Shown: positions 1 through 63,812 of the stretch, in pieces
Numbering within the stretch: position 1 is the stretch's first letter
Layout: every line of letters starts with the position of its first letter
From: an uncultured bacterium
GTDB lineage: Bacteria; Bacillota_I; Bacilli_A; RF39; UBA660
Length of the DNA stretch: 64,000 nucleotides
Direction: 5' to 3'
Assembly (NCBI GenBank): GCA_947169285.1
Contig: CAMVPB010000005.1
Coordinates: 545 to 64,544 of the forward strand
The notes under the pieces: model-generated
Told to the model about the DNA's origin: nothing
Database searches by the model: none
Seen by the model: the letters and a program-made list of their open reading frames with translations, nothing else
Translations under genes and position numbers: made by a program

Positions 1-1644
<1,644 letters not shown>

Positions 1645-1882: not shown

Positions 1883-2599
1883 ATGATAATTCAAAGTTTA
1901 AATATGGACATGTTAATGCCAGATGATCAAATAGAATATGAAAAACAAAAAGAAGAAGAAAGACGCAAAAAATTAAAATCAGAAATGGAAGAAATTATAT
2001 GCGAAAAATTTTCTGATAAAGATTTAAGTGAAATACAACACTATAAGAAAGAAATATTTGATTATTTAGTTCTTAATGGTAATTTGGACTTAACAGATAA
2101 TACTTCAAAATTAGAAATTTTTATTAAAACTTGTTATAGAATATTAAGCAAAAAAGACGTTTCTTTAAATGAATATGTTTTATTACAATCTTTATCAAGA
2201 ACATCTAAAAATGAAGTGGCGGAGGAAATACAAAGACAATATAAAGAAGCTAAAGATATTGTAATTTCAGTTGCAACAGAAAAATGTATAGAACAAGGTG
2301 AAACAACTTTGGATGATGATTCTATTAATAAAACTGTTGATGAATTAGTTGAACAATACAAAACTGGAAATTTAGATGAAATTGGATTTAATGCTGTTTA
2401 TGAAAAATATAAAGATGAATCTAATGAAGTCAAAGCACTTATTTGTAAATCTTTAGGTTTTACTTCATTCGAGGAATTAGAAAGCAATAATTCACTTACT
2501 AACGCTATAGCAACAATTATATATTTAGAATCAAATACTGATTTAGGTTTAAATTCTCATTTGAGAGACACAAAATTAAAATTACAAAAAGTTAAATAA
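1883..2599 (+). CDS. Hypothetical acidic protein, 238 aa
   Basis: Long ORF preceded by an RBS (aagggggaa). Composition is glutamate/aspartate-rich, with no recognisable motif. Confidence 0.5.
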   Translation: MIIQSLNMDMLMPDDQIEYEKQKEEERRKKLKSEMEEIICEKFSDKDLSEIQHYKKEIFDYLVLNGNLDLTDNTSKLEIFIKTCYRILSKKDVSLNEYVLLQSLSRTSKNEVAEEIQRQYKEAKDIVISVATEKCIEQGETTLDDDSINKTVDELVEQYKTGNLDEIGFNAVYEKYKDESNEVKALICKSLGFTSFEELESNNSLTNAIATIIYLESNTDLGLNSHLRDTKLKLQKVK

Positions 2600-2651
2600 A
2601 AAATAGAAGTCACAGTTAACAATAAAAATTGTGACTTTTTAAATGGTAAAA

Positions 2652-2875
2652 TATACTCCCACAAAGAGCATGTTTTTTTACTTTTTTATATCAGGATAAG
2701 AGGTGCGGTATCGCAACACTAGAATTTAAAGATAAATTCTAGTGTTTTTGTGACACCACTTATTTTGCACTTGCAAAATTGCTCCCACAGAGCATTTTAG
2801 TTTAATGAATCTCTTTATTTAAAAGAAATAAATGCTCCCGTTTTTGATTTTTTTAGAAAATCTGTGGGAGCAAAT
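2652..2875 (+). repeat. Copy 1 of a ~220-bp interspersed structured noncoding repeat (the 220-bp repeat family)
   Basis: Aligns with 7316..7533 (inverted), 8566..8776 and 13237..13426. It contains the ctcccacaaagagc / gctcccacagagc / tctgtgggagc motifs and a hairpin acactagaattt...aaattctagtgt followed by a T-tract. Confidence 0.8.
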
Positions 2876-3107
2876 TTTCATTTAATTATCTCTTTTTTTA
2901 TCAATTTGAGAAATATTTAGACTAGTAAAAAACAAAAGATTGTGTTATATTGTATTTAGAAATGGTATTTATTAGTTGTTCTTTTAGATATAAGTGTTCA
3001 AAATAGGCTCTTGTATCGCACCATTATGGATTAAACAAACAACAAGTTTGTTTTTTTATTTGGTATAAAATTAACATTTTAGTAAATCATATTAGTGGAG
3101 GACTAAT

Positions 3108-4016: not shown

Positions 4017-4092
4017 GGCGGTATTGGTGAAGTGGTAACACGGTAGATTGTGGCTCTATTATGCGTGGGTTCGATTCCCACATACCGCCCCA
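4017..4092 (+). tRNA. tRNA-His (anticodon GTG), with the extra G-1 and encoded CCA
   Basis: A cloverleaf was read by hand. Acceptor is GCGGTAT/ATACCGC with G-1 opposite C73. Anticodon stem is GTAGA/TCTAT and the loop TTGTGGC gives anticodon GTG. The T-arm is GTGGG-TTCGATT-CCCAC. Confidence 0.85.
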
Positions 4093-5166: not shown

Positions 5167-5277
5167 AATCTATATTAAAAAGTTATACCTATAATTTAAA
5201 ATAATATAAAACATGAAAAACGGATATTTGTAAAAAATATCCGTTCATTTTATAATTTATTTGAAAGGAAGAAAATT

Positions 5278-6267
5278 ATGATTAAAAATTTAGGAACATT
5301 TAAAGATTTTTGCGATGGGACTTTAAAAACAGTTTTTGATGTTGGCAATAAAAAAATAATTGAAATGTCATTATTATTTAATAAAGCAGATAAAGATGTT
5401 GTATGTGTACCAACGCATCATTTCTGTAATTTAGGATGTAAGATGTGTCATTTAACTAATAAAGGATTAAATAAAAAAATGACTCCAATAAATTCAGAAG
5501 ACTTTATGGAATGTTTATATAAGTCACTAACAAAAGATAATATAAGGAAAACTGATAAAGATAAATTGCTCATATCATTTATGGGAGTGGGGGAACCTTT
5601 ATTAAATCTTAAATTAATAGAAGAAGTTTATAAAAATGAAAATATAATAAAAGAAAAATTGGGGTATAAAGATATAGGATATGCTATTGCGACTATGATG
5701 CCTAATGATAATATTTTAAAATTAAAAGAGATGGTTTGTAGATTAAATATACCACTTAAAGTTCATTTTTCATTGCATACTCCAATTGATAATGAAAGGC
5801 GTAATTTAATACCAAGCACAAACGTTTCTGTAGAGGATGCATTAGCCTATTTAGTTAATTATAGAAATAGTTTACAATCAAATAAAGAATTGATGGAAAA
5901 ATATATTAAATTACACACTACAAATGATCCGATTGAGATTCATTATACTTTAATCAAAGGAGTAAACGATCAAAAAGAGGAATTGGCTAAATTATGCGAA
6001 TTACTACATAAGTATAATATTCCAATTAAGTTTATTAGATTTAATCCAACACAAGATATGCAAAGAAGTGAAAATGAAGAAAAATGGGTCAATGAAATTT
6101 CTAATAGTGTGCCTGGACTTAGGATTAAAACATATTCTCCACCTGGTAAAGAAGTAGGTAGTTCTTGTGGTGAATTTACAAAACATTATTATCATGAAGA
6201 AATTGAAACTGAAGCTCAAAAAGAAGAATTTGAAAAATGGAAAGTAAAACATTTAGTGCTTGAATAG
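5278..6267 (+). CDS. Radical SAM enzyme of the RlmN/Cfr family (rRNA/tRNA adenine C2/C8 methyltransferase-like), 329 aa
   Basis: It has the CNLGCKMC CxxxCxxC cluster motif, an upstream Cys in VVCVPT and a C-terminal GSSCGEF. Blocks ISFMGVGEPLLNL, HFSLHTPIDNERRNLIP, IHYTLIKGVNDQ and IKFIRFNP parallel RlmN blocks, including both mechanistic cysteines. Confidence 0.7.
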   Translation: MIKNLGTFKDFCDGTLKTVFDVGNKKIIEMSLLFNKADKDVVCVPTHHFCNLGCKMCHLTNKGLNKKMTPINSEDFMECLYKSLTKDNIRKTDKDKLLISFMGVGEPLLNLKLIEEVYKNENIIKEKLGYKDIGYAIATMMPNDNILKLKEMVCRLNIPLKVHFSLHTPIDNERRNLIPSTNVSVEDALAYLVNYRNSLQSNKELMEKYIKLHTTNDPIEIHYTLIKGVNDQKEELAKLCELLHKYNIPIKFIRFNPTQDMQRSENEEKWVNEISNSVPGLRIKTYSPPGKEVGSSCGEFTKHYYHEEIETEAQKEEFEKWKVKHLVLE

Positions 6268-6281
6268 GAGGAAAAAATAAT

Positions 6282-6680
6282 ATGAATAAAGAATATATGG
6301 AAGTAAGAGAATTTCATAAAGCGTTTAATCATCCAGTTGCTGATAAGCCAACACAATTAACGTTTGAAAGGGCTAAAAAAAGATATTTGTGGATGCTAGA
6401 AGAAATAAATGAATTTATTGAAGCCGTTAAAAATAAAGATATAGTAGAACAAGCAGATGCAATGATAGATACAATTTATTTTGCCCTTGGAACTTTAGTG
6501 GAGATGGGAATTGAACCAGATGCTTTGTTTGAAATAGTTCAAAAAGCAAATATGAGTAAATTATTTCCTGATGGCAAACCTCATTATAATGAAATGGGAA
6601 AAGTAATTAAACCACAAAATTGGGAAGATCCGCATCCCAAATTAGAGCTAACCATAAAAAATATGAATAATTCTAATTAG
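6282..6680 (+). CDS. MazG-like all-alpha nucleoside triphosphate pyrophosphohydrolase family protein, 132 aa
   Basis: Acidic helix pattern LEEINEFIEAVKNKDIVEQADAMIDTIYFALG is typical of the MazG/HisE-like NTP-PPase fold. Confidence 0.5.
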   Translation: MNKEYMEVREFHKAFNHPVADKPTQLTFERAKKRYLWMLEEINEFIEAVKNKDIVEQADAMIDTIYFALGTLVEMGIEPDALFEIVQKANMSKLFPDGKPHYNEMGKVIKPQNWEDPHPKLELTIKNMNNSN

Positions 6681-6775
6681 AAAAGATATTATAAAAAAAT
6701 AAGATACTTTAATAAAAGATTTTAAGGATTGGTTTTATTTAAAAAGATACTAAAACATAGTATAATGTTATTGAG

Positions 6776-7297
6776 ATGAGCAATATGGAAACAATAGTAA
6801 TAAACAATAACAATTTGACTGATAAAGATATTAATGAATATGGTAAAAAAGTAAGAGCAGTTTTATTTGATGAAGAAAAAATATTAATATCTTGTTATGG
6901 TGGAGTTATATTATTGCCTGGTGGAAGTATTGATAAAAATGAAACTTCAGATCAAGCAATTGTAAGAGAATTAAAAGAAGAAACAGGTATTATATATAAT
7001 ATAAAAGACTTGAAAAAGTTACTAGTTGTTAAGCATTATCAACAAAATTATCTGACTAGAAATGAATCCATTAAAAATAGATTAATAAGCACTGAATATT
7101 ATATTGGAAAATATCAAGGAATTAATTTAGATGAAACTCACATGACAGATAAAGAATTAAAAGATAACTTTAATTTGAAATTAGTAAATATAAATGAATT
7201 ACAAAATTTATTAAATAAAATAACAAATAATCCAAGAAAAAATTTTTTTGATGAAGAAATAAGAGAAGTTATTCACACTTTAACTCTTAAAAAGTAA
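6776..7297 (+). CDS. NUDIX hydrolase, 173 aa
   Basis: Nudix box GGSIDKNETSDQAIVRELKEETGI fits Gx5Ex7REUxEExGU. Confidence 0.8.
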   Translation: MSNMETIVINNNNLTDKDINEYGKKVRAVLFDEEKILISCYGGVILLPGGSIDKNETSDQAIVRELKEETGIIYNIKDLKKLLVVKHYQQNYLTRNESIKNRLISTEYYIGKYQGINLDETHMTDKELKDNFNLKLVNINELQNLLNKITNNPRKNFFDEEIREVIHTLTLKK

Positions 7298-7315
7298 TAA
7301 CATTATAAAATAATA

Positions 7316-7533
7316 TGCTCCCACAGATTTTTTAAAAAAATCAAAAATGGGAGCATTTATTTCTTTTAAATAAAGAGAATAATTAAGTTAAAATGCTTTG
7401 TGGGAGCAATTTTGCAAGTGCAAAATAAGTGGTGTCATAAAAATATAGGTATTTCCTAGAAATATTTATATTTTGACACCTCATACTTATCCTGATATAA
7501 AAAAGTAATATTTTATGTATTCTATAGGAGCAA
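7316..7533 (-). repeat. Copy 2 of the 220-bp repeat family, inverted relative to copy 1
   Basis: The reverse complement aligns with 2652..2875 over about 190 bp (gacaccacttattttgcacttgcaaaattgctcccaca...aaatctgtgggagc). The internal hairpin has a different sequence but the same position and is followed by a T-tract. Confidence 0.8.
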
Positions 7534-7555
7534 AAAAATATTATTTAAAATCTTA

Positions 7556-7609
7556 TTGAAATTAATATTTGTTTTATATATAATATTAAGACATAAGGGA
7601 GGTTTTAGG
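7556..7609 (+). promoter_or_regulatory. Conserved promoter plus RBS module (TTGAAA-17-TATAAT ... acataagggagg), duplicated at 10518..10571
   Basis: Near-identical ~50-nt sequences precede two unrelated ORFs. The six-frame track reads them as a shared fake N-terminus MKLI.VL.IILRHKGGF. Confidence 0.6.
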
Positions 7610-8353
7610 ATGTTAAAATATTTGAATTATGATAATTATAACGTAGATGAAGAACTTTTAAAAATTGAAAATTGTGAAGAAGCAGAAATAGTATTAGAAC
7701 CAAGGAATAAAAAATGTTTATTTATTTTAGGGATGCTATTTGTAAATGGAGTTAAGATAAAGATCTTGAATGAAAATGATTTGAATCTTGAAGAAACAAA
7801 TAAATCATTTTCTATGATGCCATATGTATGGAGTAAAATAGGTGATAATAGTTTTCCAGCACCTGATTATTCTAATGTAAGAACCGAAATGGATAGAAGA
7901 GTAGAAAATGTTAAAAGAATGGGTTGTAAAGTAAATAGAATAGAAAACAATCCAATAGATAATAAAATATTTTTGATTTGTCCTGTAAGAAATGCTACTG
8001 AAGAACAAAGAAAATGGATTGAAAACTTTACTAAAGAGAAATATAACAACGGATATATAATTCATGCTCCACATCTTCATACAAGACAAACGGATTTGTT
8101 TGGCGGATATGCTATATGCAAACAAAATGCAGAGGCAGTAGCTACTTCTGAAGAAATTTACATATACTATGATCAATCAAGTACAGGTAGTGTATTTGAT
8201 TTAGGAGTGGCTTATGCATTACATAAACCATTAAAAGTATTAAATAAAGAAGAAATAGTTTTTAATGAAGATGATTTCATAGATAATATTGTAAAGACTT
8301 GGCCTTATAATTTAAAGACAAAAGTAAGAACTTTATCTAAAGAAAATATGTAA
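7610..8353 (+). CDS. Hypothetical protein with C-terminal nucleoside 2-deoxyribosyltransferase-like (NDT/Rcl-like) domain, ~247 aa from internal ATG
   Basis: Motifs KIFLICPVRNATEEQ and DQSSTGSVFDLGVAYALHKPLKV resemble the NDT-family GP-loop and DxGTxFExG(Y/A)A blocks. The start is placed after the conserved promoter/RBS module. Confidence 0.5.
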   Translation: MLKYLNYDNYNVDEELLKIENCEEAEIVLEPRNKKCLFILGMLFVNGVKIKILNENDLNLEETNKSFSMMPYVWSKIGDNSFPAPDYSNVRTEMDRRVENVKRMGCKVNRIENNPIDNKIFLICPVRNATEEQRKWIENFTKEKYNNGYIIHAPHLHTRQTDLFGGYAICKQNAEAVATSEEIYIYYDQSSTGSVFDLGVAYALHKPLKVLNKEEIVFNEDDFIDNIVKTWPYNLKTKVRTLSKENM

Positions 8354-8504
8354 AGAGAATCTGCACTTATGTTTTAAAAAATTGACTTTGCAAAATCAAA
8401 AAAATATGATAATATTAGTTCAGTTAGTAATATATACTACTATTTTAAAGCATTATCTTGTTGCTCTACACAATTAAGATACGTGCTATAATGTTATTAG
8501 CGAT

Positions 8505-8565
8505 TAGTTGTATTAGCAACTTTCTTTAAAAGCAATAAGTTTTAAATCATCTTATTTATTGCTTA
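8505..8565 (+). repeat. Short palindromic repeat (agttgtattagcaact ... gcaataag-N-cttatttattgc), second copy at 14497..14557
   Basis: Direct sequence similarity between the two loci. Both lie just downstream of a gene. Confidence 0.55.
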
Positions 8566-8776
8566 CTAAAGAGCGTGTTTTTTTAACTATTTATATGAGA
8601 GCTGCGGTATCACAACACTAGAATTTGTTTGTAAATTCTAGTGTTTTTGTGACATCAATCTTATTTTGCGCTTGCAAAATTGCTCCCTAGAAATAATGTA
8701 CTTAATATTTATTGCCTTAAATACTAATGAAAATTGTTCCCAAAATGTCATTTTTTTGAAAAATGCGAGGGAGTAA
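8566..8776 (+). repeat. Copy 3 of the 220-bp repeat family
   Basis: Shares aaagagcgtgttttttt, gcggtatcacaacactagaattt...aaattctagtgtttttgtgaca, ttgcgcttgcaaaattgctccc and a gagggag right end with copies 1 and 4. Confidence 0.75.
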
Positions 8777-8875
8777 CTTTTTAACTGCTTTCCAAAATAT
8801 TTGACTTATTTTTTTGTTTACAATCATAATAAATATACTTATAATATTTTTGTAAAAAGGTGTATTATGCAAAAA

Positions 8876-8970
8876 GATAATATGCTAAAGCGCTAAATAA
8901 AGAAATTATTTATTACACTGATTTAAAAGAAGAAAATTTAGAAACTCAAATTCGAAAAAAATTAGTCTAG
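8876..8970 (+). pseudogene. Remnant 3' end of an NDT-like gene (YAKALNKEIIYYTDLKEENLETQIRKKLV*), duplicate of 11545..11640
   Basis: About 90% nucleotide identity to the 3' end of the frameshifted NDT-like gene at 11292..11637. The following attttaaagagtgttatttgatattaaaggag junction is shared as well. Confidence 0.6.
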
Positions 8971-9008
8971 ATTTTAAAGAGTGTTATTTGATATTAAAGG
9001 AGAAAATT

Positions 9009-9752
9009 ATGATGAATGTAAACAAAGAATTAATTGAGTATGTAGAAAATAATATAAAACCCATATATGTAAACAACAATTATGCTGGTCATGGTTGGGA
9101 ACATATTCAAAATGTAATAAGTCGTAGTTTTGAGTTAATGGAAAAATTCAAGTTAGAAATTAACCCTAATATGGTTTATGTTATAGCAGCATATCATGAT
9201 ATTGGTTATAAAGAAAATCCTGAAAATCATGAACAAGTATCAAGTGAAATGTTTTTACAAAATAAAGAAATTCAACATTTTTTTAGTGAAGAAGAAAATA
9301 GAATAATTGCTGAAGCTATAGTAGATCATAGAGCAAGTTTAGAATATGAAGCAAGAAGTGTCTACGGAAAATTAGTTTCCTCTGCTGATAGAGCTATTGA
9401 TGTTAATAATATGTTAGAAAGGTCAATTTCTTTTCAATATGAAAAGCATAAATTAGAAAATCCAACGATTCAAGATATTATTGAATATTCTTATAAGAAA
9501 CTATCAAGTAAATATGGAAATGGTGGATATGCTAAAATGTATTTTCAAGATGATAAATATTTAGAATATTTAAAAAAAGTGAATTTATTATTTTCAGACA
9601 AAGAAGAATTTATTAAAGCAGAGATGAATATTATTGCTAATAATTCACAATTATTACAAAAAATATATGTGAATCCAGAATTGAGAACATTATTAGAAGA
9701 TAAAGAAAAGAACATAAGTACTAAAAGAGTATATATAAAAAATAAAAAATGA
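9009..9752 (+). CDS. HD-domain metal-dependent phosphohydrolase, ~247 aa
   Basis: H...HD signature (GHGWEHIQNV ... VIAAYHDIGY). Start ATG at 9009 after RBS aaaggag; the track's TTG start at 8988 is less likely. Confidence 0.65.
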   Translation: MMNVNKELIEYVENNIKPIYVNNNYAGHGWEHIQNVISRSFELMEKFKLEINPNMVYVIAAYHDIGYKENPENHEQVSSEMFLQNKEIQHFFSEEENRIIAEAIVDHRASLEYEARSVYGKLVSSADRAIDVNNMLERSISFQYEKHKLENPTIQDIIEYSYKKLSSKYGNGGYAKMYFQDDKYLEYLKKVNLLFSDKEEFIKAEMNIIANNSQLLQKIYVNPELRTLLEDKEKNISTKRVYIKNKK

Positions 9753-9798
9753 AAACATAAATTTATTGATTATGTTAGGGTAAATATAGGAGGATTTT

Positions 9799-10503
9799 AT
9801 GAAAAAAATAACAGAGTTATTTATGGCTTATAAAAACGATTTTGCTAATAGTAATTTAAAAGATAATGAATTAATAGAGTTTGTAATGCCTTTTAACTTT
9901 TCTGATTTAAGCGATGTTGTTAATGGAAATATATTTTTAAAAAGCTATAATCAAAAAATATCAATAAAAGAATCATTAGATTTATTAGATTTATCAATAA
10001 AAAATAATAATAGGATAAGAGTGTGGACTAGTCATGTTGACCCTGATTATTATTTGTTTTTATTATTTATATGTTTTTATGTAAAGAATAAGATTGAATG
10101 TTTAGAAGTCTTTTATTCTGATGAATACAAAAGTGAATGTACAAGTACCGGAATGATGACTTCAAAAGAATTAGATAAATTATCATTGATGGGTCATAAA
10201 ATAGAAAAAAATGAAATAGAAGAATATGCTAATAAATGGGAGTCTTTAATTCAAGATGGAAGTAAAATACATATTTTCGAGAATAATGAATTAATTGGTG
10301 TGCCATATGATTATATTTATGAACAAATAATAGATTTCATAAAAAAAGAAAACAAAGTTAAAGTTGTTGAAATAGTTTTTGAATTTTCAAAAAAATATAA
10401 TATTGATGTTGATTATTTAATAAAGCAACTAATAGAAGATAAAAAGATTAAAGTATTAGAAAGCAATGAAATATTTTCTAAAATCATTGTTGGATTAAGT
10501 TAA
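9799..10503 (+). CDS. Hypothetical protein, 234 aa
   Basis: ORF with RBS (taggagga). No recognisable motif. Confidence 0.45.
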   Translation: MKKITELFMAYKNDFANSNLKDNELIEFVMPFNFSDLSDVVNGNIFLKSYNQKISIKESLDLLDLSIKNNNRIRVWTSHVDPDYYLFLLFICFYVKNKIECLEVFYSDEYKSECTSTGMMTSKELDKLSLMGHKIEKNEIEEYANKWESLIQDGSKIHIFENNELIGVPYDYIYEQIIDFIKKENKVKVVEIVFEFSKKYNIDVDYLIKQLIEDKKIKVLESNEIFSKIIVGLS

Positions 10504-10571
10504 TCTTAAATGAAATTGTATTGAAATTAATAAAAGTGTTGTGTATAATATTGAGACATAAGGGAGGATTT

Positions 10572-11189
10572 ATGGATTTTATTAAAAAAAATGAGTCTTG
10601 TGAAAAATTTTATTCTGTTGACTATGATAAAGAGAAGTTAAATGAAATTTTAGAAAAGTTAAAAAACTATAATTATACGGCAATTGGTAAAGGCGAGATG
10701 GGTGGAGTAACTAATTGGCCTGCTACAGAGAAAAATATAAAAAGAAGAGTTACATCTTTCTTTAATGCTTGTATGCATGACCAAAATGCAACATTACATC
10801 CAGAGACAATAGTGCGTCATGATGATGACTATGTTTCATATGAATATTCTTATAATAAATTACCGGATCTATATGATTATATTGATTTAATTGTAAATAC
10901 ACAAAACCCTTTTAAACATAAAAGATTGTTTAAGAATTTTAGTGATGCTTATATTTGCTTTCACTGGGATCAAATAGTATTAGAAGGATTGCTAAATTAT
11001 GCAAATTCCCCAGAATTAACAAATCATAATTCTATAGAAAATAGTGAATCAAGTAAAGAAGAGTATGATTATAAAGGATTAAATGAATTATATATAGAGA
11101 CATTAAAATGTTTCAATTTCAATTTAATAGCAGTCAAAGAATATTTAAAAGAACCAAAATCAGTGAATGTTTTATCTTTAAAAAAATAA
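10572..11189 (+). CDS. Hypothetical protein, ~205 aa (start at internal ATG after the conserved promoter/RBS module)
   Basis: Preceded by the same TTGAAA-17-TATAAT ... taagggagg module as 7610. No recognisable family. Confidence 0.45.
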   Translation: MDFIKKNESCEKFYSVDYDKEKLNEILEKLKNYNYTAIGKGEMGGVTNWPATEKNIKRRVTSFFNACMHDQNATLHPETIVRHDDDYVSYEYSYNKLPDLYDYIDLIVNTQNPFKHKRLFKNFSDAYICFHWDQIVLEGLLNYANSPELTNHNSIENSESSKEEYDYKGLNELYIETLKCFNFNLIAVKEYLKEPKSVNVLSLKK

Positions 11190-11291
11190 ATTATTTGGTC
11201 ATAGTATAAAACAAAAACTATGGCTTTTTAATTGTTATATTAAAATTAGAATCATGATATAATAAAAAAGTAATTTGAAAGTTGGTGTGAA

Positions 11292-11637
11292 ATGAAAATA
11301 ATAACAGTTTGTGGAAGTTTAAGATTTTTTAAAGAAATGATGGAAATAACTGAAAAGAAGGAATTAGAGGGTAATTGTATGTTAGTTCCAATTTATAATC
11401 CTTTAAAACCAAATAAAGATAATTATAGTGAGAAAGGATGCACTTATGTTGGATAAGATGCATAAAGAAAGAATTAAACTATCTGATGCTATTTTAGTTG
11501 TTAATGTTAATAACTATATTGGTGATAGTACTAAAAGTGAAATAGAATATGCTAAATCATTAAATAAAGAAATTATTTATTACACTGATTTAAAAGAAGA
11601 AAGCTTAGAAACTAAAATTCGAAAAAAATTAGTTTAA
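11292..11637 (+). pseudogene. Frameshifted nucleoside 2-deoxyribosyltransferase-like gene (two overlapping ORFs 11292..11457 and 11428..11637)
   Basis: N-terminal part MKIITVCGSLRFFKEM... and C-terminal part LSDAILVVNVNNYIGDSTKSEIEYAKSLNKEIIYY together fit the NDT-family pattern but lie in different frames. Confidence 0.5.
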
Positions 11638-11677
11638 ATTTTAAAGAGAGTTATTTGATATTAAAGGAGGAATTGAT

Positions 11678-12277
11678 ATGAAATTAATTTTAACATCTAG
11701 AGTGTTCGGTGATGCTATTGCAACTGAAAAAGTATTAAATGAATTAAATATGGATATTTCAAAAGCAAAAATACTTTTAATAGCAACTCCAAGATTGCCT
11801 TATGAAGGGCCAGAAAGTTCTTTTGAAAGTTTAGTTTATTGGGGATTTAAAGAAGAAAACATCGTAATATTTGATCATAATAAAGCAGAAGAATATTGTA
11901 ATTTAGATATAGATATTATTTATGTTACAGGAGGAAACACTTTTACAGGTTTAAAATTACTTAAAGAATGCAGATTTGATAAAGAAATTATTAAATATAT
12001 AAATAATGGCGTAATCTATTTAGGAAAAAGTGCTGGTTCACATATAGTATCTAAAAATATTGAACATGTTATAGGATTTGATCCAAATGAAGTAGGGTTA
12101 ACTGACTTTGAAGGGTTAGGATTATTTAATGGAATATTAGTTTGTCATTATAGTGATGAAAGAAAACCATGTTATGATAGATTATTATCAGAAAAAAAGT
12201 ATCCTGTGTATACTTTAACTGACCAAGATATGATAGTGTATGATGATAGTTTAGTAAAAAAATTAAAAAAGTATTAA
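11678..12277 (+). CDS. Peptidase S51 (dipeptidase E-like) family protein, 199 aa
   Basis: IIYVTGGNTFTGLKLL ... GVIYLGKSAGSHIV matches the S51 GGNTF / SAGS serine motif. Confidence 0.55.
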   Translation: MKLILTSRVFGDAIATEKVLNELNMDISKAKILLIATPRLPYEGPESSFESLVYWGFKEENIVIFDHNKAEEYCNLDIDIIYVTGGNTFTGLKLLKECRFDKEIIKYINNGVIYLGKSAGSHIVSKNIEHVIGFDPNEVGLTDFEGLGLFNGILVCHYSDERKPCYDRLLSEKKYPVYTLTDQDMIVYDDSLVKKLKKY

Positions 12278-12367
12278 GAGAAGATTTTACAAATAAAAAT
12301 ATTTGTGTTAATATGTGATTAGAAAAATCTTATATTTTTCTTTATGAGTTTAGCAATAGTTAAATTA

Positions 12368-12403
12368 TTGCCCCAGAAGGAAATCCGCTCGAACTTTTCG
12401 AGC
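12368..12403 (+). other. Degenerate direct repeat of the tRNA-His 3' end plus downstream hairpin (att-like); gctcgaacttttcgagc is a perfect hairpin
   Basis: gccccaGAAGGaaatccGCtcgaactttt versus gccccaTATTGaaatccCGtcgaactttt at 4087..4114 matches at about 25 of 29 positions, in the same orientation. Confidence 0.55.
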
Positions 12404-12465: not shown

Positions 12466-12732
12466 ATGGTATTTATGGTAAATATTATTAAGCAAGAAGT
12501 TGTTATTGAAGAATCATTAAAGAAGAAGTTAAAACTAATATGTGAGTTTTCAAATACTACTTTAAAAATAATAAATGGTAGTATAAGAAAAATTGAAAAT
12601 AATAATCAAATTAGAGAAATAACTGAAGAAAATAGGAATGGATTCGATTTAATAGAAAAAGCAGAAAAAGAAATAAAATATATGGAAGGCCACAAAAAAC
12701 GCTTACAAAATAAATTATTAGTCATAGTTTAA
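12466..12732 (+). CDS. Hypothetical protein, 88 aa
   Basis: ORF with upstream RBS (aggatgg). Lysine/glutamate-rich with a coiled-coil-like composition. Confidence 0.4.
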   Translation: MVFMVNIIKQEVVIEESLKKKLKLICEFSNTTLKIINGSIRKIENNNQIREITEENRNGFDLIEKAEKEIKYMEGHKKRLQNKLLVIV

Positions 12733-12827
12733 AATATAATAAAAACTATGACTTTTTAAATGGGATATACTTGACTTTTTAAGAAAAAAGCAGTATAATA
12801 TGGCCACATTTTAAGGAGGAAATTAGA

Positions 12828-13163
12828 ATGAGAACTCGTGTACCTGATAATCCACATCCAGTACCAATGCCGGATATGGATAATTTTAGCGAAGAAGAAA
12901 TAGATGATTTGTTAATAGACAATTTTTTAAAGAAATTAGAAGTTCATTCACATACGCCTAGAAATCCGCATCCAGTACCAATGCCGGATATGGATAATTT
13001 TAGCGAAGAAGAAATAGATGATTTGTTAATAGACAATTTTTTAAAGAAATTAGAAGTTCATTCACATGCGCCTAGAAATCCGCATCCAGTACCAATGCCA
13101 TCAATAGAAACAGATTATCAATCAAAAAAAGTTAAAAGAAGAATTAGAAGATTACTTAAATAG
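12828..13163 (+). CDS. Tandem-repeat protein (repeated 38-aa unit RNPHPVPMPDMDNFSEEEIDDLLIDNFLKKLEVHSH.P), 111 aa
   Basis: ORF with RBS (aaggagga). It contains a perfect 114-bp tandem duplication. Confidence 0.5.
   Translation: MRTRVPDNPHPVPMPDMDNFSEEEIDDLLIDNFLKKLEVHSHTPRNPHPVPMPDMDNFSEEEIDDLLIDNFLKKLEVHSHAPRNPHPVPMPSIETDYQSKKVKRRIRRLLK
12852..13103 (+). repeat. Tandem direct repeat, 114-bp unit x ~2.2, near-identical copies
   Basis: Units start at 12852, 12966 and 13080. Copies are identical except for single bases (acgcct versus gcgcct). Confidence 0.85.
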
Positions 13164-13236: not shown

Positions 13237-13426
13237 TTGCTCCCTCGAAAAGCATTTTTTATGCTATTTTTAATATCAGGATAAGAGGTGGTATCACATT
13301 ACTAAGATTTACCCATAAATCCTAATAATTTGTGACTCCAAACTTATATTTTATGTTTTTTTGACTCAAACGCTAACAACTTTTACTCCCAAAATGACTT
13401 TTTTTTGAAAAAGTTGAGGGAGCAAA
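13237..13426 (+). repeat. Copy 4 of the 220-bp repeat family (most diverged)
   Basis: ttgctccctcgaaaagcatttttt ... atatcaggataagaggtg ... a hairpin, then ttgtgac ... gttgagggagcaaaa. The end motifs co-vary (ccctcgaa/ttgaggg here versus cccacaaag/ctgtggg in copy 1). Confidence 0.7.
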
Positions 13427-13560
13427 AAATATAAATATAATAAAAATAATTGAAGAATTTTATAAAATGAATAGTAATTTTTTCAAATTATAAGATATAA
13501 CTTTAAATTTGACTTTAAGTCTCTGCTTTGATATAATATATAGCTATTAAGAGGGGGTTT

Positions 13561-14400: not shown

Positions 14401-14496
14401 AAGGATTTTAAAAAAGATATTGATTAACACAAACCAATATTTTTTCTTTTGAAAAGACTTTGACATTTATATAATTTATGATATTATGTTTATAGA

Positions 14497-14557
14497 AATT
14501 AGTTGTATTAACAACTTTCTTTAAAGATGGTAAGTTTTAAATCATCTTATTTGTTGC
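14497..14557 (+). repeat. Second copy of the short palindromic repeat seen at 8505..8565
   Basis: ttagttgtattaacaactttctttaaa...taagttttaaatcatcttatttgttgc, compared with 8505..8565. Confidence 0.55.
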
Positions 14558-14841
14558 CCAAATAAAAAAATAATGTCGCATAATGCGACTTTTTTTATTG
14601 GGGCTATAAATAAAATTATTCTTATAAAAAAGTGTTTTTGAATTATTTTGACTATAATATATATAGAGGAGACATAATATGAATAATGGAATAAAAAATG
14701 AAACTGAAATTGTTAATAGCATAAATGGCAAGAAGTTTAATGAATTAAATTAATAATTTTTGCTTTTAAATGTAAAATTTTTAAATCTTTAATATTTTTT
14801 TAATAAAAGATAGTAAAATTATTTTTGAAAGGAAGAAAAAT

Positions 14842-17818: not shown

Positions 17819-17906
17819 TAATTTTAAAAAGATATTAGATTAATTTCTAATATCTTTTTTGCAATAATTTTTGTTTTTAAGTAAATAATAATATTAGGTG
17901 ATTTTA

Positions 17907-18653
17907 GTGGCTAATATACGCAGTAATATTTCTTTTGCTCTTGTAGATATTCCAGTTATCATGAATCCAATTATTAAAAACAATGATGCATCTTTTAATC
18001 AAATTCATGAGAAGTGTGGTAAAAGAGTATCTTATATAAAATATTGTCCTCATTGTAAAAAGAATATTAAAGAAAGTGAAATAATTAAAGGTTATCAATA
18101 TGAAGATAATGAATATGTTGTTTTTGATAAAGAAGAATTAAATAAGTTAAAACCTGAAAATGATCATGAAATAGAGATAATATCTTTTATTAGTATTAAA
18201 GATATAGATCCATATTATTTTGAAAAAAGTTATGTACTTGGTAGTACCGGAAAAGGTAAAAGTTATAATTTATTTTGTGAAGCTTTAAAGAAAAGTAAGT
18301 TAGTAGCTCTTTGTAAAACTGTTTTAAATGGTAAATTTTATTATTGCATTTTAAGATTTAATAAAAATAATATTATAATGACTACTTTATATTTTGAAGA
18401 AGAAATAAATATAGATAATGAAAAAAAGAAAGATATAAATATTAATAACAAAGAATTAAATCTTGCTATGAAATTAATTGATTCATTGAAAGGTAAATTT
18501 GAACCATCTAAATATAAAGATGAATATCAGGATAACATTAAAGATGCAATTAATTTAAAACTAGATGGTAAAACAATTAAAGGTAAAAAGAAAAAAGATA
18601 AAAAGCATATTAATGATTTAATGGAAGCTTTAGAAAAGAGTTTAAAAAAATGA
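17907..18653 (+). CDS. ku: Ku protein (NHEJ DNA end-binding); GTG start after RBS aggtga
   Basis: N-terminus ANIRSNISFALVDIPV matches the bacterial Ku start (SISFGLVNIPV). Length about 250 aa, with a lysine-rich C-terminal tail. Confidence 0.8.
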   Translation: MANIRSNISFALVDIPVIMNPIIKNNDASFNQIHEKCGKRVSYIKYCPHCKKNIKESEIIKGYQYEDNEYVVFDKEELNKLKPENDHEIEIISFISIKDIDPYYFEKSYVLGSTGKGKSYNLFCEALKKSKLVALCKTVLNGKFYYCILRFNKNNIIMTTLYFEEEINIDNEKKKDININNKELNLAMKLIDSLKGKFEPSKYKDEYQDNIKDAINLKLDGKTIKGKKKKDKKHINDLMEALEKSLKK

Positions 18654-29961: not shown

Positions 29962-30030
29962 TGTTCTTGTCTTTTTATTTTATATTTGATACAATGTATA
30001 TAGATGAAGAAAACTTCATATAATAAAAAG

Positions 30031-30107
30031 GACACACCTTAAAGAGTAGGTGTGCTCCGAGTTTTCGTTACACACTAGCCCTTGTTAAGGCTAGTGTGAT
30101 TTTTATT
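30031..30107 (+). ncRNA. Putative antisense RNA (type I antitoxin-like), copy 3
   Basis: Promoter aaacttcatataat. The terminator hairpin is again a different sequence (cacactagcccttgttaaggctagtgtg) plus T-tract. Confidence 0.4.
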
Positions 30108-30183
30108 TGGACAATAGTACTATAAATACTAGAGCAAACAAGAGGATGATTATTACAAAGTATGGGATTTCTTTTCTAGTCAT
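30103..30183 (-). CDS. Small hydrophobic peptide, 26 aa (MTRKEIPYFVIIILLFALVFIVLLSK), type I toxin-like paralogue
   Basis: Minus-strand ATG preceded by RBS ggaggtga. Minus-strand promoter TTGCAT-17-TAATAT retained at 30254..30282 with a diverged spacer. Confidence 0.55.
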   Translation of the reverse strand: MTRKEIPYFVIIILLFALVFIVLLSK

Positions 30184-30469
30184 AAATCATCACCTCCTCA
30201 AAATTTATAGTTTTAAGGAGCACACACTAACCTCTATTAAGATGTGTCTAAGTCATATTAACACAGTGAGTTTAGCTATGCAAATGCGTACTTTAAAGTT
30301 TTAATAATACAATAAATACATATAATTTAATTTCTGTTATATGTATTTTTTTAGTTTTAATTTATCAAATATTAAATATATACAAAATTTAATAATTTAC
30401 ACTGTAAATGTAAAATGTAAAACTAAAAAGTGCAGTTGATATATATATATATATATGGTATAATAGTCC

Positions 30470-59717: not shown

Positions 59718-59794
59718 GGCGATGTAGCTCAGCTGGTTAGAGCGCACGGTTCATACCCGTGAGGTCGTGAGTTCGATCCCCACCGTCGCTACCA
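59718..59794 (+). tRNA. tRNA-Met (anticodon CAT), elongator type, CCA encoded
   Basis: Hand-folded cloverleaf. Acceptor GGCGATG/CGTCGCT, D-arm GCTC-AGCTGGTTA-GAGC, anticodon stem CACGG/CCGTG with loop TTCATAC, T-loop TTCGATC. Confidence 0.85.
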
Positions 59795-59806
59795 ATATGA
59801 TAAGAA

Positions 59807-59866
59807 GCTCGAACTTTTTTGTTTCGAGAGTAATAAATTGCTAACTAGAAATAGTTAGTTTTTTTG
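59807..59866 (+). terminator. Two hairpins after tRNA-Met: gctcgaa-ctttttgt-ttcgag, then ctaact-agaaat-agttag plus T-tract
   Basis: Inverted repeats read directly from the sequence. The first shares the tcgaactttt motif with 4105..4114 and 12390..12399. Confidence 0.6.
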
Positions 59867-59880
59867 TACTTTTAAAGAAA

Positions 59881-60180
59881 GTGAGAGTGATTATTATGTA
59901 TGAAAATATAACTAAACCTTTACAAATAAGTAAAGAATTAAACAATAAGATTGGTTTTATATGCCGGTTTGCTTGTGTTAAGTATGAATTAATACCAGGT
60001 AATATTATATTGGTTAATAATACTAATATTTGCTATGTAAGACCACATATATTAAAAGTTAAAGGAAATGATTATCTTATATTTGAAAACTCTGATATGG
60101 TCTTTAAAAATGGTTATAAAGAAAAAATAAGACTAATAGACTTAGAAACTGAACTAAAAAGCATTGACAACTCAAAATAA
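59881..60180 (+). CDS. Hypothetical protein, 99 aa (possible start 59896)
   Basis: ORF between tRNA-Met and the recombinase gene. Confidence 0.4.
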   Translation: MRVIIMYENITKPLQISKELNNKIGFICRFACVKYELIPGNIILVNNTNICYVRPHILKVKGNDYLIFENSDMVFKNGYKEKIRLIDLETELKSIDNSK

Positions 60181-60336
60181 ATGTTTATAATAAAGAATCA
60201 ATAAAAGAAGAAGTATCTTCGGAAATGGAGGTACATCATGATTAGACTGAAGAATCAGTTATTTAAAAATATTTATATAAGCGTTTTAAGAGGAGTTAAT
60301 GCCCTATGTCAGTAGGATGTTGACCCCTCTTTTTAA

Positions 60337-62235
<1,899 letters not shown>

Positions 62236-62350
62236 TCGAAGGCTCTAAAGAATTAGTCCACGGACTAATTGTATGCTCTGCGTACAATTATCCTAGGGGG
62301 TTAGAGTTTTTGACAATAATAAATTATTCAAAAAAGAAAGGGGATTTTAT

Positions 62351-63739
62351 ATGAGTGATTTATCTTATTCTTTACATTTAGGAAGTGATAAGAATAGAAA
62401 AAATATTTCTAGATCAAATAATAATTTAAGTAATACTACATCATTATCTAATAATGCTATTCAAAATAAAAGACAACTATCAAAAGTGGATAATCATAAT
62501 GCAAGAAAGTATGATAATGATACTGATAAAATATCTATATTGAAAGGTACTAATTCAGTATACAATGATGTTGAAAAATTATATAAAGATATATTTGATA
62601 AATCTAGAATAGAATATAACAAAAAACAAACTAGACCAAGTAGAATGATAGATAATTATTTTGATAAGATATCTAATGATGAAAAAAGAGATCTTGCTTG
62701 TGAAATAATAATTGAACTTGGAGATAAAGATTTTTGGGAAGATAAAGATACTTTCTATAAAGCAAAAATGGAAGAAGTTTTTGAAAAGCAAATATCAGAT
62801 TTAGAAAAATTGGTTCCTAATTTTAAAATAGCAAATGCAATAGTTCATTATGATGAAACTAGTCCACATTTACATATAGTAGGAGTTCCAATTAAAGAAG
62901 GAAATAAAAATGGTATGTCACTTCAAGTTGGTAAGTCTGATGTATTTACAAAAGAGTCATTAGCTGATATTCAATTGAATATGAGAGACTTGTGTATCCA
63001 AAAGTTTAACGAAGTATATCAAACTAATTATGAGTTAAAAGAGAAAGTATTAGGAAGAAATAAAGATATACATGTTATGGATATGGTAGACTATAAAGAA
63101 ACTATGAAAGAAATAGAAACAAATAGACAAAGTATTAAAAAGACAACTAATTCTATAAATGAAATAAAAGAACAATCAAAAGAAATAAAAAATATATTAG
63201 AAAGTTTAGATTCTAACTTATTAAATTATAAATTATCTAAAAGAGATAAATATAAAATAGAAAAGTATGTTAATGAAATGAATAAGTTAAATGAACAATA
63301 TGAAGAATTATTTAAAATATCTTCATCTATTCAAGCAATTAAAAGTAATAATGATGAATTAAAATCTAGTTATAAACATGAGAAATTTCAAAATACAGTT
63401 TTAACTAGTCAATTAATGAGTTTGCATGATAAAGTTAGTAATGAAAATGATAGAAATGCAATATTAGAATATAAACTCGAAGAAGCAAAAGATAATAAAT
63501 TATTATTTATTAAATCTTTAAGTGAAGCAATACATAATAATTCAAAAGATAAGTTTCCTAGAGAATTTGCTAAAAGATTATATGAGAAAAGAGTATTAAA
63601 TAGATCAGAATATAGATGTATTATTGATACTAATTTATCATTTTTCAATCCAAGTGAAGTAGAAGCAGTATTACATAAATTAAATCGAGAAGCAGAACAA
63701 GCAGCAGAAGAATTTTATAATATGCATAGTAGTTTATGA
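62351..63739 (+). CDS. MobV-family (Pre/Mob) plasmid recombination/mobilisation relaxase, 462 aa
   Basis: Motif VHYDETSPHLHIVGVP fits HxDE...PHxH. The C-terminal half is a long coiled coil. Confidence 0.65.
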   Translation: MSDLSYSLHLGSDKNRKNISRSNNNLSNTTSLSNNAIQNKRQLSKVDNHNARKYDNDTDKISILKGTNSVYNDVEKLYKDIFDKSRIEYNKKQTRPSRMIDNYFDKISNDEKRDLACEIIIELGDKDFWEDKDTFYKAKMEEVFEKQISDLEKLVPNFKIANAIVHYDETSPHLHIVGVPIKEGNKNGMSLQVGKSDVFTKESLADIQLNMRDLCIQKFNEVYQTNYELKEKVLGRNKDIHVMDMVDYKETMKEIETNRQSIKKTTNSINEIKEQSKEIKNILESLDSNLLNYKLSKRDKYKIEKYVNEMNKLNEQYEELFKISSSIQAIKSNNDELKSSYKHEKFQNTVLTSQLMSLHDKVSNENDRNAILEYKLEEAKDNKLLFIKSLSEAIHNNSKDKFPREFAKRLYEKRVLNRSEYRCIIDTNLSFFNPSEVEAVLHKLNREAEQAAEEFYNMHSSL

Positions 63740-63812
63740 TGTTTAATTTGACATATTGTATCAAATATGTTATAATATAATCACATTTTAAAAAGGGGGA
63801 GGAATATTTAAA

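Follow-up and report, generated by a model that had tools for sequence, protein, structure and literature searches.

Conserved promoter, terminator and Shine-Dalgarno junctions as probable exchange points between unrelated genes in an island of an AT-rich bacterium

Are the genes of a bacterial island exchanged as modules behind shared junction sequences and, if so, what carries out the exchange? This question is raised by a locus in a 64,000-nt stretch of DNA from an uncultured bacterium of the RF39 lineage (assembly GCA_947169285.1, contig CAMVPB010000005.1, positions 545 to 64,544), which we analysed as a whole and refer to as the window; the host is a very AT-rich gut or rumen bacterium. 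The original prediction, made from the sequence of the window, had described two duplicated junctions, a promoter with a ribosome-binding site and a gene tail with a ribosome-binding site, and had supposed that genes are swapped behind them as in integron-like or shufflon-like systems. Here we describe these repeats, their spread over metagenome or Logan contigs that are partial relatives of the locus (L numbers below), the alternative arrangements found there and the positions at which homology breaks off. Overall, we consider it probable that unrelated genes of the island are swapped by recombination at shared promoter, terminator and Shine-Dalgarno (SD) junctions, in a manner similar to the promoter early stem-loops (PeSLs) of phages (see below).

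We confirmed that the promoter module (P) is duplicated, as had been claimed for a TTGAAA-17-TATAAT...SD unit. The two copies, P1 and P2 (Table 1), are 80% identical over 71 nt and share the -35 hexamer TTGAAA, a 17-nt spacer, the -10 hexamer TATAAT and the SD sequence AAGGGAGG; in the core from -35 to SD, 41 of 49 positions are identical (7554-7602 versus 10519-10567). The start of the second copy had been given as 10518, a trivial deviation of 3 nt from the actual -35. The core pattern TATTGAAATTAATA-N-TATAATATTRAGACATAAGGGAGG has these two matches only in 64 kb and none in 100 shuffles. The genes behind the copies had been called unrelated, which is correct, their 247-aa and 205-aa (aa, amino acid) products having no BLASTP similarity to each other. 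The module has the make-up of a sigmaA-type promoter with a short leader and an SD, and is predicted to be active. A chance likeness of two strong promoters was rejected, with approximately 22 of the 30 positions outside the -35, -10 and SD identical and the module recurring elsewhere, and a riboswitch or leader RNA within the module was rejected because the leader is only ~15 nt long. Consensus promoters were predicted from the sequence ahead of individual units at 7556, 8817, 10521, 12771 and 13509; the scan as such was non-discriminating (112 sites versus 102 expected) and only intergenic matches of 11/12 were used.

The duplication of the gene tail with its spacer and ribosome-binding site likewise held, copies A and B being 90% identical over 138 nt, and a pattern for the 31-nt spacer matched in the window at these two junctions only (0 expected). 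Copy B contains the genuine 3' end of a small gene with an NDT fold, ahead of a peptidase S51 family gene; copy A, ahead of an HD-domain gene, retains a coding remnant of ~30 codons, which an in-frame TAA closely precedes. Homology between the copies ends directly after the SD AAAGGAG (9003/11670), short of the HD (9009) and S51 (11678) starts, and the identical junction type stands ahead of S51 in L005. Copy A may be the scar of a small-NDT/S51-type unit that lost its head and had its downstream gene swapped for HD exactly at the SD/ATG.

One explanation of the two repeat pairs is a single old local duplication of a block consisting of the promoter module, a gene, the small NDT gene and the junction, the copies of which then decayed with no ongoing exchange. 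The colinear order (1320 nt from P1 to junction A, 1024 nt from P2 to junction B) and the direct orientation of both pairs at similar spacing (2965 and 2667 nt) are in keeping with this. However, the two units of the block occur separately, P2 with the 205-aa gene and the terminator-like T element (see below) in L016, and T with a promoter, small NDT and S51 in L005; the P module is found in 10 other contigs ahead of 13 gene families; copy A is no closer to copy B (90.6%) than to the L005 allele (93.0%), a weak point given the 128 nt compared; and the genes behind the junctions would still need replacement. We regard a single old duplication as decidedly improbable.

The module was then followed in a scan of JGI and other metagenome contigs. 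The exact 24-nt string from the -10 to the SD was present in 10 contigs, each with a GC content of ~25%. When up to 3-4 mismatches were allowed, 17 copies of P were counted, four of them on one strand of L009 and two each on L010 and L017; a third, weaker L017 copy was found by profile search only. The claim that genes are swapped as modules behind shared junctions agrees with what follows the module: the ORFs (open reading frames) behind the 16 copies with a scorable downstream ORF belong to 13 families without BLASTP relationship, in 11 contigs, and all 10 of the module-led ORFs tested from other contigs had no Pfam match. The pairing of contigs by homology upstream of the module is not that given by the downstream gene, and this homology always stops between SD and ATG. 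The window at P1 and L017, for example, have a repeat (Y, see below) and the module in common with different genes behind them, and the same holds for the pairs L009/L012, L009/L014, L010/L013 and L008/L016. Homology has a sharp 3' edge, whereas its 5' edge is variable, at ~30 to >200 nt. A comparison of global identity in windows on either side of the module proved too noisy for a test, with a background of 64 +/- 5% in 75% AT DNA.

A single fixed arrangement in all relatives, which the original prediction had named as the observation that would count against it, was not found: every related contig recovered (L004, L005, L008, L011, L016, L017) differs. The Logan contig L004, from another sample, is 99.4% identical to window 6216-7344 (MazG, NUDIX) and keeps the promoter/SD of 5240-5286, with a 178-aa gene in place of the radical SAM gene's first 610 nt; what is left of the latter, at 81% identity, meets the 99.4% block at a direct repeat of 14 nt. 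L005 matches window 11198-12277 at 94.4% with an intact small NDT gene, the junction and S51, but has unrelated genes upstream of the T hairpin, T plus a promoter ahead of small NDT, and three additional genes behind S51. In the core genes on its flanks identity is lower (aquaporin 85%, phosphoketolase 82%), which implies that the small-NDT-S51 unit is younger than the divergence of the hosts and was laterally exchanged. L008 carries an 82% nt homologue of the 247-aa gene followed by an HD gene, but with other filler between them. The unit of P2, 205-aa gene and T (10513-11217) recurs in L016, there without the small NDT gene, and in L011 another gene is inserted between the P module and a decayed, internally deleted remnant of the 205-aa gene.

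Taken along the window, these relatives form a mosaic in which 6216-7344 corresponds to L004, 7408-7604 to L017, 7574-8269 to L008, 8873-9016 to L005, 9024-9703 to L007, 10513-11217 to L016 and 11198-12277 again to L005. Neighbouring blocks overlap only in the P core (7574-7604) and in the T hairpin (11198-11217); partner switches also fall at the SD/ATG (9003-9024; 5286), in what is a small sample of breakpoints. Further searches gave no matches for the exact HD (both starts), S51, DUF3658 and UDG proteins, for 7300-12400 by megablast against plasmid and phage collections, or for the P-module and A/B-junction patterns in IMG/VR (0 matches), and a scan of genome contigs with the HD protein found three distant loci (45-73% aa), all without the junction.

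An alternative explanation for the SD/ATG boundaries is that the shared signals are kept by selection, as a regulon or for optimal expression, and that genes turn over by random illegitimate recombination, which would make the junctions products and not agents. Homology always ends at the SD/ATG, as selection on expression predicts, the module is close to the sigmaA consensus and has a strong SD, and truncated remnants together with a microhomology deletion are evidence that illegitimate joints do form. However, where homology passes from one contig to another, the two blocks share sequence within the P core and the T hairpin, as crossovers there would produce, 100-200 nt of upstream homology (gene tails, terminators) travels with the module although expression needs none of it, and the 95-nt coding remnant in copy A is conserved as well as the spacer. 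Selection without exchange at the junctions seems unlikely to us; it is compatible with such exchange and probably contributes to the SD/ATG boundary.

Exchange at the junctions, which we favour, could work as follows. The junction vocabulary would consist of the P module, the T element, a ~200-nt repeat (copies X, Y, Z and W) and the small-NDT tail with its SD. Because the same junctions appear to recur within the island, between both islands of the genome and among the islands of related bacteria, they could serve as portable homology patches of 30-200 nt at gene borders. RecA-type recombination inside a junction would insert, delete or replace the gene behind it; by an alternative route, one junction would act as an anchor and the second joint would be illegitimate, often at the SD or other microhomology. 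A replacement gene would inherit ready-made expression signals (promoter, SD, terminator), and one-sided events would leave truncated neighbours, as which copy A, the truncated HD gene, the L004 radical SAM remnant and the L011 remnant may be understood. P1 and P2 would be two resident copies of a family-wide promoter module. The junctions themselves would be the crossover substrate, with no dedicated cassette recombinase involved.

Are recombinases nevertheless present? The original prediction had noted no recognisable integrase, which proved incorrect, since a large serine recombinase is encoded at the start of the window and a second one, of 626 aa, at 60355-62235. The right window end (59718-63739) holds a second element of this kind, comprising a tRNA-Met, this second recombinase and a Mob_Pre relaxase (62351-63739); the sequence after the relaxase (63768-63823) resembles the start of L005. 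The first recombinase is probably the integrase of the array-bearing island, and both look like whole-island integrases, not cassette recombinases. A Pfam scan of ORFs of at least 100 aa and most smaller ones at 1-17.1 kb found no tyrosine recombinase, Phage_integrase or IntI. L015 carries a serine recombinase (35% aa identity to that of the window), a Mob_Pre relaxase and one gene, followed by a P module. We also compared the context of the small NDT family in L018-L024. In human-gut contigs, its gene closes the cargo next to a serine recombinase of 580 aa; upstream of it, the cargo comes in three to four alternative sets. TnpV and relaxase genes are located nearby, and P modules are absent. 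Since the arrays stand beside serine recombinases and sister copies have Mob/Pre, they would be the cargo of integrative, often mobilizable elements, and window ~1-16.6 kb would be the cargo section of an integrative, probably mobilizable island.

A dedicated site-specific system, in which the serine recombinase of the island or an unseen recombinase moves promoter-bearing single-gene cassettes via P/T sites as a Firmicute analogue of the integron, could draw on the presence of a large serine recombinase beside P-module arrays in the window and, independently, in L015, on the ~50-nt P core, which has the size of a serine-recombinase site, and on the sharp 3' edge of homology; it would explain the SD/ATG boundary ahead of at least 13 unrelated families. 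Against it stand the 5' edge, which varies from ~30 to >200 nt, the fold test, which found no dyad symmetry or hairpin in the P module and the A/B junction, the similar human-gut recombinases that flank cargo without P modules, and the lack of a tyrosine recombinase in the 17-kb island. A recombinase with Mob_Pre and TnpV presumably matches the whole-element integrases of the Tn4451 type, which we also count against a cassette system. Overall, we hold such a system to be very improbable. The integron-like part of the original prediction did not stand, given that there is no IntI and no attC-like hairpin, that the cassettes have their own promoters and that homology boundaries are not fixed sites. 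The shufflon-like part fell as well, and an invertible segment was rejected, both repeat pairs being direct, the genes lying on one strand and no inversion system having been found. Correct was the remark that no attC is recognisable, junctions A and B folding no better than shuffles (z +0.9 and -0.5).

Several points weigh against exchange at the junctions. The case for recombination activity is drawn from a comparative sequence pattern. Each unrelated gene must initially have been joined to the module by an illegitimate event at the SD/ATG, and selection on expression alone, without the junction as a recombination hotspot, could yield the SD/ATG pattern. The search with an exact 24-mer makes the additional conservation from -10 to SD partly an ascertainment effect. 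The tail-SD junction is known in three copies only (window A, window B and L005), which is why its role as a general linker is weak. Assembly chimeras at repeats are possible in the comparators, although the modules are shorter than typical assembly k-mers. Finally, the left-hand island lacks a relaxase (ORF 1883-2599 is unrelated), and a tRNA-His and a LysR gene lie within the presumed cargo.

The island units lie on one strand in the order LysR; RlmN/Cfr-like radical SAM, MazG and NUDIX; P1 with the 247-aa gene; remnant A, HD and DUF3658; P2 with the 205-aa ORFan; the frameshifted small NDT with S51; and more ORFans. All genes from 115 to 36658 are on the plus strand, and the tRNA-His is at 4018. 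The cargo consists of small, independent transcription units in a row, most of which encode ORFans or enzymes that handle nucleotides (RlmN/Cfr-like radical SAM, MazG, NUDIX, two NDT-fold genes, HD and S51). Between the units, the hairpins of the T element are stable (z -2.7 to -4.4) and belong to a family common to L005, L009, L010, L012, L013, L016 and L017. T is a predicted intrinsic terminator, often with a promoter directly after it. Composite T+P junctions are found in the window (12694-12799), in L009 (10522-10448) and in L017 (2792-2878), with a length of ~100 nt in related contigs; P and T are also found apart from each other. According to profile search and BLAST, their copies are confined to the first 13 kb of the window.

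The long junction repeat occurs in four copies. Copy Y is predicted to terminate the radical SAM-MazG-NUDIX operon with a hairpin (GCTCCCA..TGGGAGC; -18.8 kcal/mol, z -5.4) and abuts P1 with its other end, and a Y+P unit also stands in L017 (345-569), ahead of a different gene. The inverted pair Y/Z (28-nt cores at 7402-7429 and 8660-8687, 96% complementary) encloses exactly P1 and the 247-aa gene, and the inverted pair X/Y (167 nt, 86%) encloses 4.4 kb with the tRNA-His, LysR and the radical SAM-MazG-NUDIX operon. Inversion by homologous recombination across either pair is possible; no alternative orientation of the Y/Z or X/Y segments was observed. Pieces related to the short promoter-plus-hairpin unit (Table 1) are present in L011 and L014. 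Small units of this kind recur at 8484-8562, 14479-14557, 12290-12379, L005 3755-3900 and L011 ~11990-12060, and consist of an extended -10 promoter (TGnTATAAT) or TTTACA-17-TAATAT, ~80-100 nt and a hairpin terminator; they could be a small RNA or leader. L005 fuses in one piece the sequences at window 12268-12379 and ~14575-14600. Rfam searches (gathering threshold or E<=1) on X/Y/Z/W, T, the short promoter-hairpin unit and the junctions gave no family.

Table 1 Features of the window. The two duplicated junctions and the genes behind them are given first, followed by the other elements. Promoters and terminators are predictions; z, folding score relative to shuffles.
Feature	Position	Strand	Remarks
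P1 promoter/leader	7537..7607	+	-35 7556-7561, -10 7579-7584, SD 7595-7602, ATG 7610
247-aa gene behind P1	7610..8353	+	Weakly NDT-like, Pfam PF05014 E 1.2e-3, below cut-off
P2 promoter/leader	10502..10572	+	-35 10521-10526, -10 10544-10549, SD 10560-10567, ATG 10572
205-aa ORFan behind P2	10572..11189	+	L016 homologue 57% aa / 72% nt
Junction copy A	8873..9010	+	Headless 3' remnant, stop 8968-8970; 33-nt spacer; SD AAAGGAG 8997-9003; HD ATG 9009
HD-domain gene	9009..9752	+	Pfam HD; first half of a tandem HD-HD gene
Small NDT-fold gene	11292..11637	+	114 codons, split into two ORFs by an extra G at ~11436-11437
Junction copy B	11540..11677	+	Genuine 3' gene end, stop 11635-11637; spacer, SD; S51 ATG 11678
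Peptidase S51 family gene	11678..12277	+	Pfam 1.2e-23; within the L005 block at 94.4% nt
T element copy 1	2594..2655	+	Hairpin GTCACAGTT..AATTGTGAC then TTTTTAAATGG; -12.9 kcal/mol, z -4.4; BLAST family
T element copy 2	11178..11250	+	Hairpin 11199-11232; L016 and L005 homology blocks overlap at 11198-11217
T element copy 3	12694..12770	+	Abuts TTGACT-17-TATAAT 12771-12799, forming a composite terminator-promoter junction
Long junction repeat copy X	2690..2880	+	~200 nt, two hairpins, 28-nt core CTTATTTTGCACTTGCAAAATTGCTCCC
Long junction repeat copy Y	7288..7454	-	Inverted versus X and Z; 167 nt 86% complementary to 2734-2900
Long junction repeat copy Z	8595..8790	+	Pairs inverted with Y
Long junction repeat copy W	13240..13430	+	Internal deletion
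Short promoter-plus-hairpin unit (TGcTATAAT...)	8484..8562; second copy 14479..14557	+	79 nt, 84%
TTTACA-17-TATAAT promoter	8817..8845	+	Now heads the HD-DUF3658 unit; 11/12 consensus match
DUF3658 gene	9799..10503	+	Pfam
Large serine recombinase	115..1644	+	Pfam Resolvase/Recombinase/Zn_ribbon_recom; 5' end cut by the window start

The extra G in the small NDT gene was called against the intact homologues in L005 and L006; because the window is a single contig resembling a metagenome-assembled genome, the frameshift could be an assembly error. The frameshift-repaired protein has 2737 database homologues. Among the matches listed, its relatives are mostly 102 aa long, 80-87% identical and without the last ~12 residues; the family is unusually conserved, with the best 120 of the 2737 relatives (P0001-P0120) 79-91% identical over ~100 aa. 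The protein scores below the threshold of Pfam PF05014 (19 bits versus a cut-off of 28.8), and a profile search of PDB sequences gave no matches, but an AlphaFold model of the intact homologue P0001 (pLDDT 75) matches NDT, DNPH1 and BcmB (Foldseek E 2e-4, TM ~0.56-0.6). On the strength of this model, the label "NDT-like" appears to stand at the level of the fold (NDT/DNPH1 superfamily). The neighbours of the small NDT gene in L006 are UDG, RNase T-BRCT and a Gabija-like OLD/UvrD pair accompanied by a tyrosine integrase.

The closest relatives of the HD gene are tandem HD-HD fusions of 425-432 aa. Its homology to L007 (1475-2154, corresponding to 9024-9703 at 83%) stops at 9703, followed by 16 unrelated codons, which makes the window HD gene a truncated first half ending in foreign sequence. 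Single-domain forms of the HD module occur alongside HD-HD (425-432 aa) and HD-NUDIX (~380 aa) fusions (P0121-P0137, P0142); as the window gene is cut in the HD1-HD2 linker, the end of the HD domain is a recurrent fusion or breakpoint site. The DUF3658 gene has no homologue among the fetched loci. The radical SAM protein (5278-6267) aligns to the catalytic part of RlmN/Cfr only (model ~78-351; 95 bits versus a cut-off of 290), and we read it as a remote RlmN/Cfr-like enzyme with a short N terminus, whose operon also holds MazG and NUDIX. ORF 12828-13163 contains a 114-nt tandem repeat (2.2 copies, 98% identical) that encodes ...PRNPHPVPMPDMDNFSEEEIDDLLIDNFLKKLEVHSH... and has no Pfam match. 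A defence or immunity role of the cargo was considered and is unsupported: no Imm-type Pfam family was found in the tested island and module-led ORFs, and PADLOC identified no defence system, with only weak domain-level matches of NUDIX/PDC-S07 and HD/Cas3-HD.

Downstream of the island follow ordinary chromosomal genes (aquaporin, Ku/LigD, phosphoketolase, AspRS, SerRS and RecD2), and L005 has different cargo ahead of the same aquaporin gene; no empty target site was found in the recovered relatives. Ku and a LigD-type ligase/polymerase/phosphoesterase (17898-20879) lie between aquaporin and DUF6512/phosphoketolase and are absent from the syntenic place in L005 (5964-5984), so that the whole neighbourhood is indel-prone. 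Three copies (72-95%) of a promoter followed by a ~200-nt structured-looking unit with a terminator occupy 23798-24730 and 30005-30289, two in tandem upstream of the AspRS T-box and one upstream of ORF 30470. The structured unit has no Rfam family; Rfam reports in this region the T-box alone (24728-24880, 48 bits, below gathering).

If exchange at the junctions is real, the PeSL principle known from phages would also be at work in bacterial mobile islands, with terminator/promoter/SD junctions doubling as expression signals and recombination handles. This would explain how very AT-rich gut and rumen Firmicutes build up and exchange ORFan-rich arrays without integron machinery. The 24-nt string offers a search handle to pull such arrays from metagenomes, and the module would mark at least 13 uncharacterised gene families as co-mobilised and probably co-expressed.

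How does the island compare with known systems? Its elements resemble the clostridial mobilizable transposons of the Tn4451/Tn4453 type, which we take to carry the large resolvase TnpX, the Mob/Pre relaxase TnpZ and TnpV. The serine recombinase with Mob_Pre at the cargo end (60355-63739; L015) and the TnpV and relaxase genes of the human-gut contigs are similar, but the cargo here is a much larger, variable array of many small units, and the left-hand island lacks a relaxase. Mosaicism of phages at linkers or "boundary sequences" (Susskind & Botstein; Clark et al. 2001) uses short conserved sequences at gene borders as crossover points, and homology-facilitated illegitimate recombination in transformable bacteria (de Vries & Wackernagel 2002) combines a one-sided homologous anchor with an illegitimate second joint. 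The latter leaves truncated neighbours similar to those in copy A, L004 and L011. Both are general models and not defined systems. Similar to integrons, the island presents a one-strand array of exchangeable single-gene units with repeats between them; in contrast to integrons, its hairpins (T, Y) are U-tailed terminators at non-uniform positions relative to the genes, there is no attI, and predicted promoters of the units stand in place of Pc.

The rAID-1 systems, orphan-immunity arrays of Bacteroidales, have a XerD-family tyrosine recombinase and recognisable homologues of immunity genes (Ross et al. 2019, bioRxiv 10.1101/471110). They share with the island long same-strand arrays of small, diverse, horizontally acquired genes, intergenic repeats and a recombinase at one end, whereas here the recombinase is a serine recombinase, no Imm or defence family was detected and the phylum is another one.

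PeSLs are ~100-bp intergenic motifs in the hyperplastic regions of T4-type phages, composed of an upstream stop codon, a terminator stem-loop, a sigma70-type -35/-10, an SD and a start codon; they mostly precede ORFans, cluster in variable regions and bound indels and replacements between relatives, and their shuffling has been shown experimentally, mini-circles included (Arbiol et al. 2010, PMC2839356; Comeau et al. 2014, PMC4122927). In our literature search, the term was used for phages only, and the window, which carries AspRS, SerRS, phosphoketolase, Ku/LigD and RecD2, is not a T4-type phage. The setting here is the chromosome or an integrative island of a Firmicute-like organism with 25% GC, the sequences are unrelated, T and P also occur separately, and there are further junction types (gene tail with SD, 200-nt two-hairpin repeat). 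Similar to PeSLs, composites of a terminator stem-loop, a sigma70-type promoter and an SD are found here too, each shuffled gene has its own promoter and terminator, the P modules precede ORFans, and partner switches are bounded by P or T, albeit in a small sample. By analogy, the island would thus work like PeSL shuffling while not being a member of the class defined in phages.

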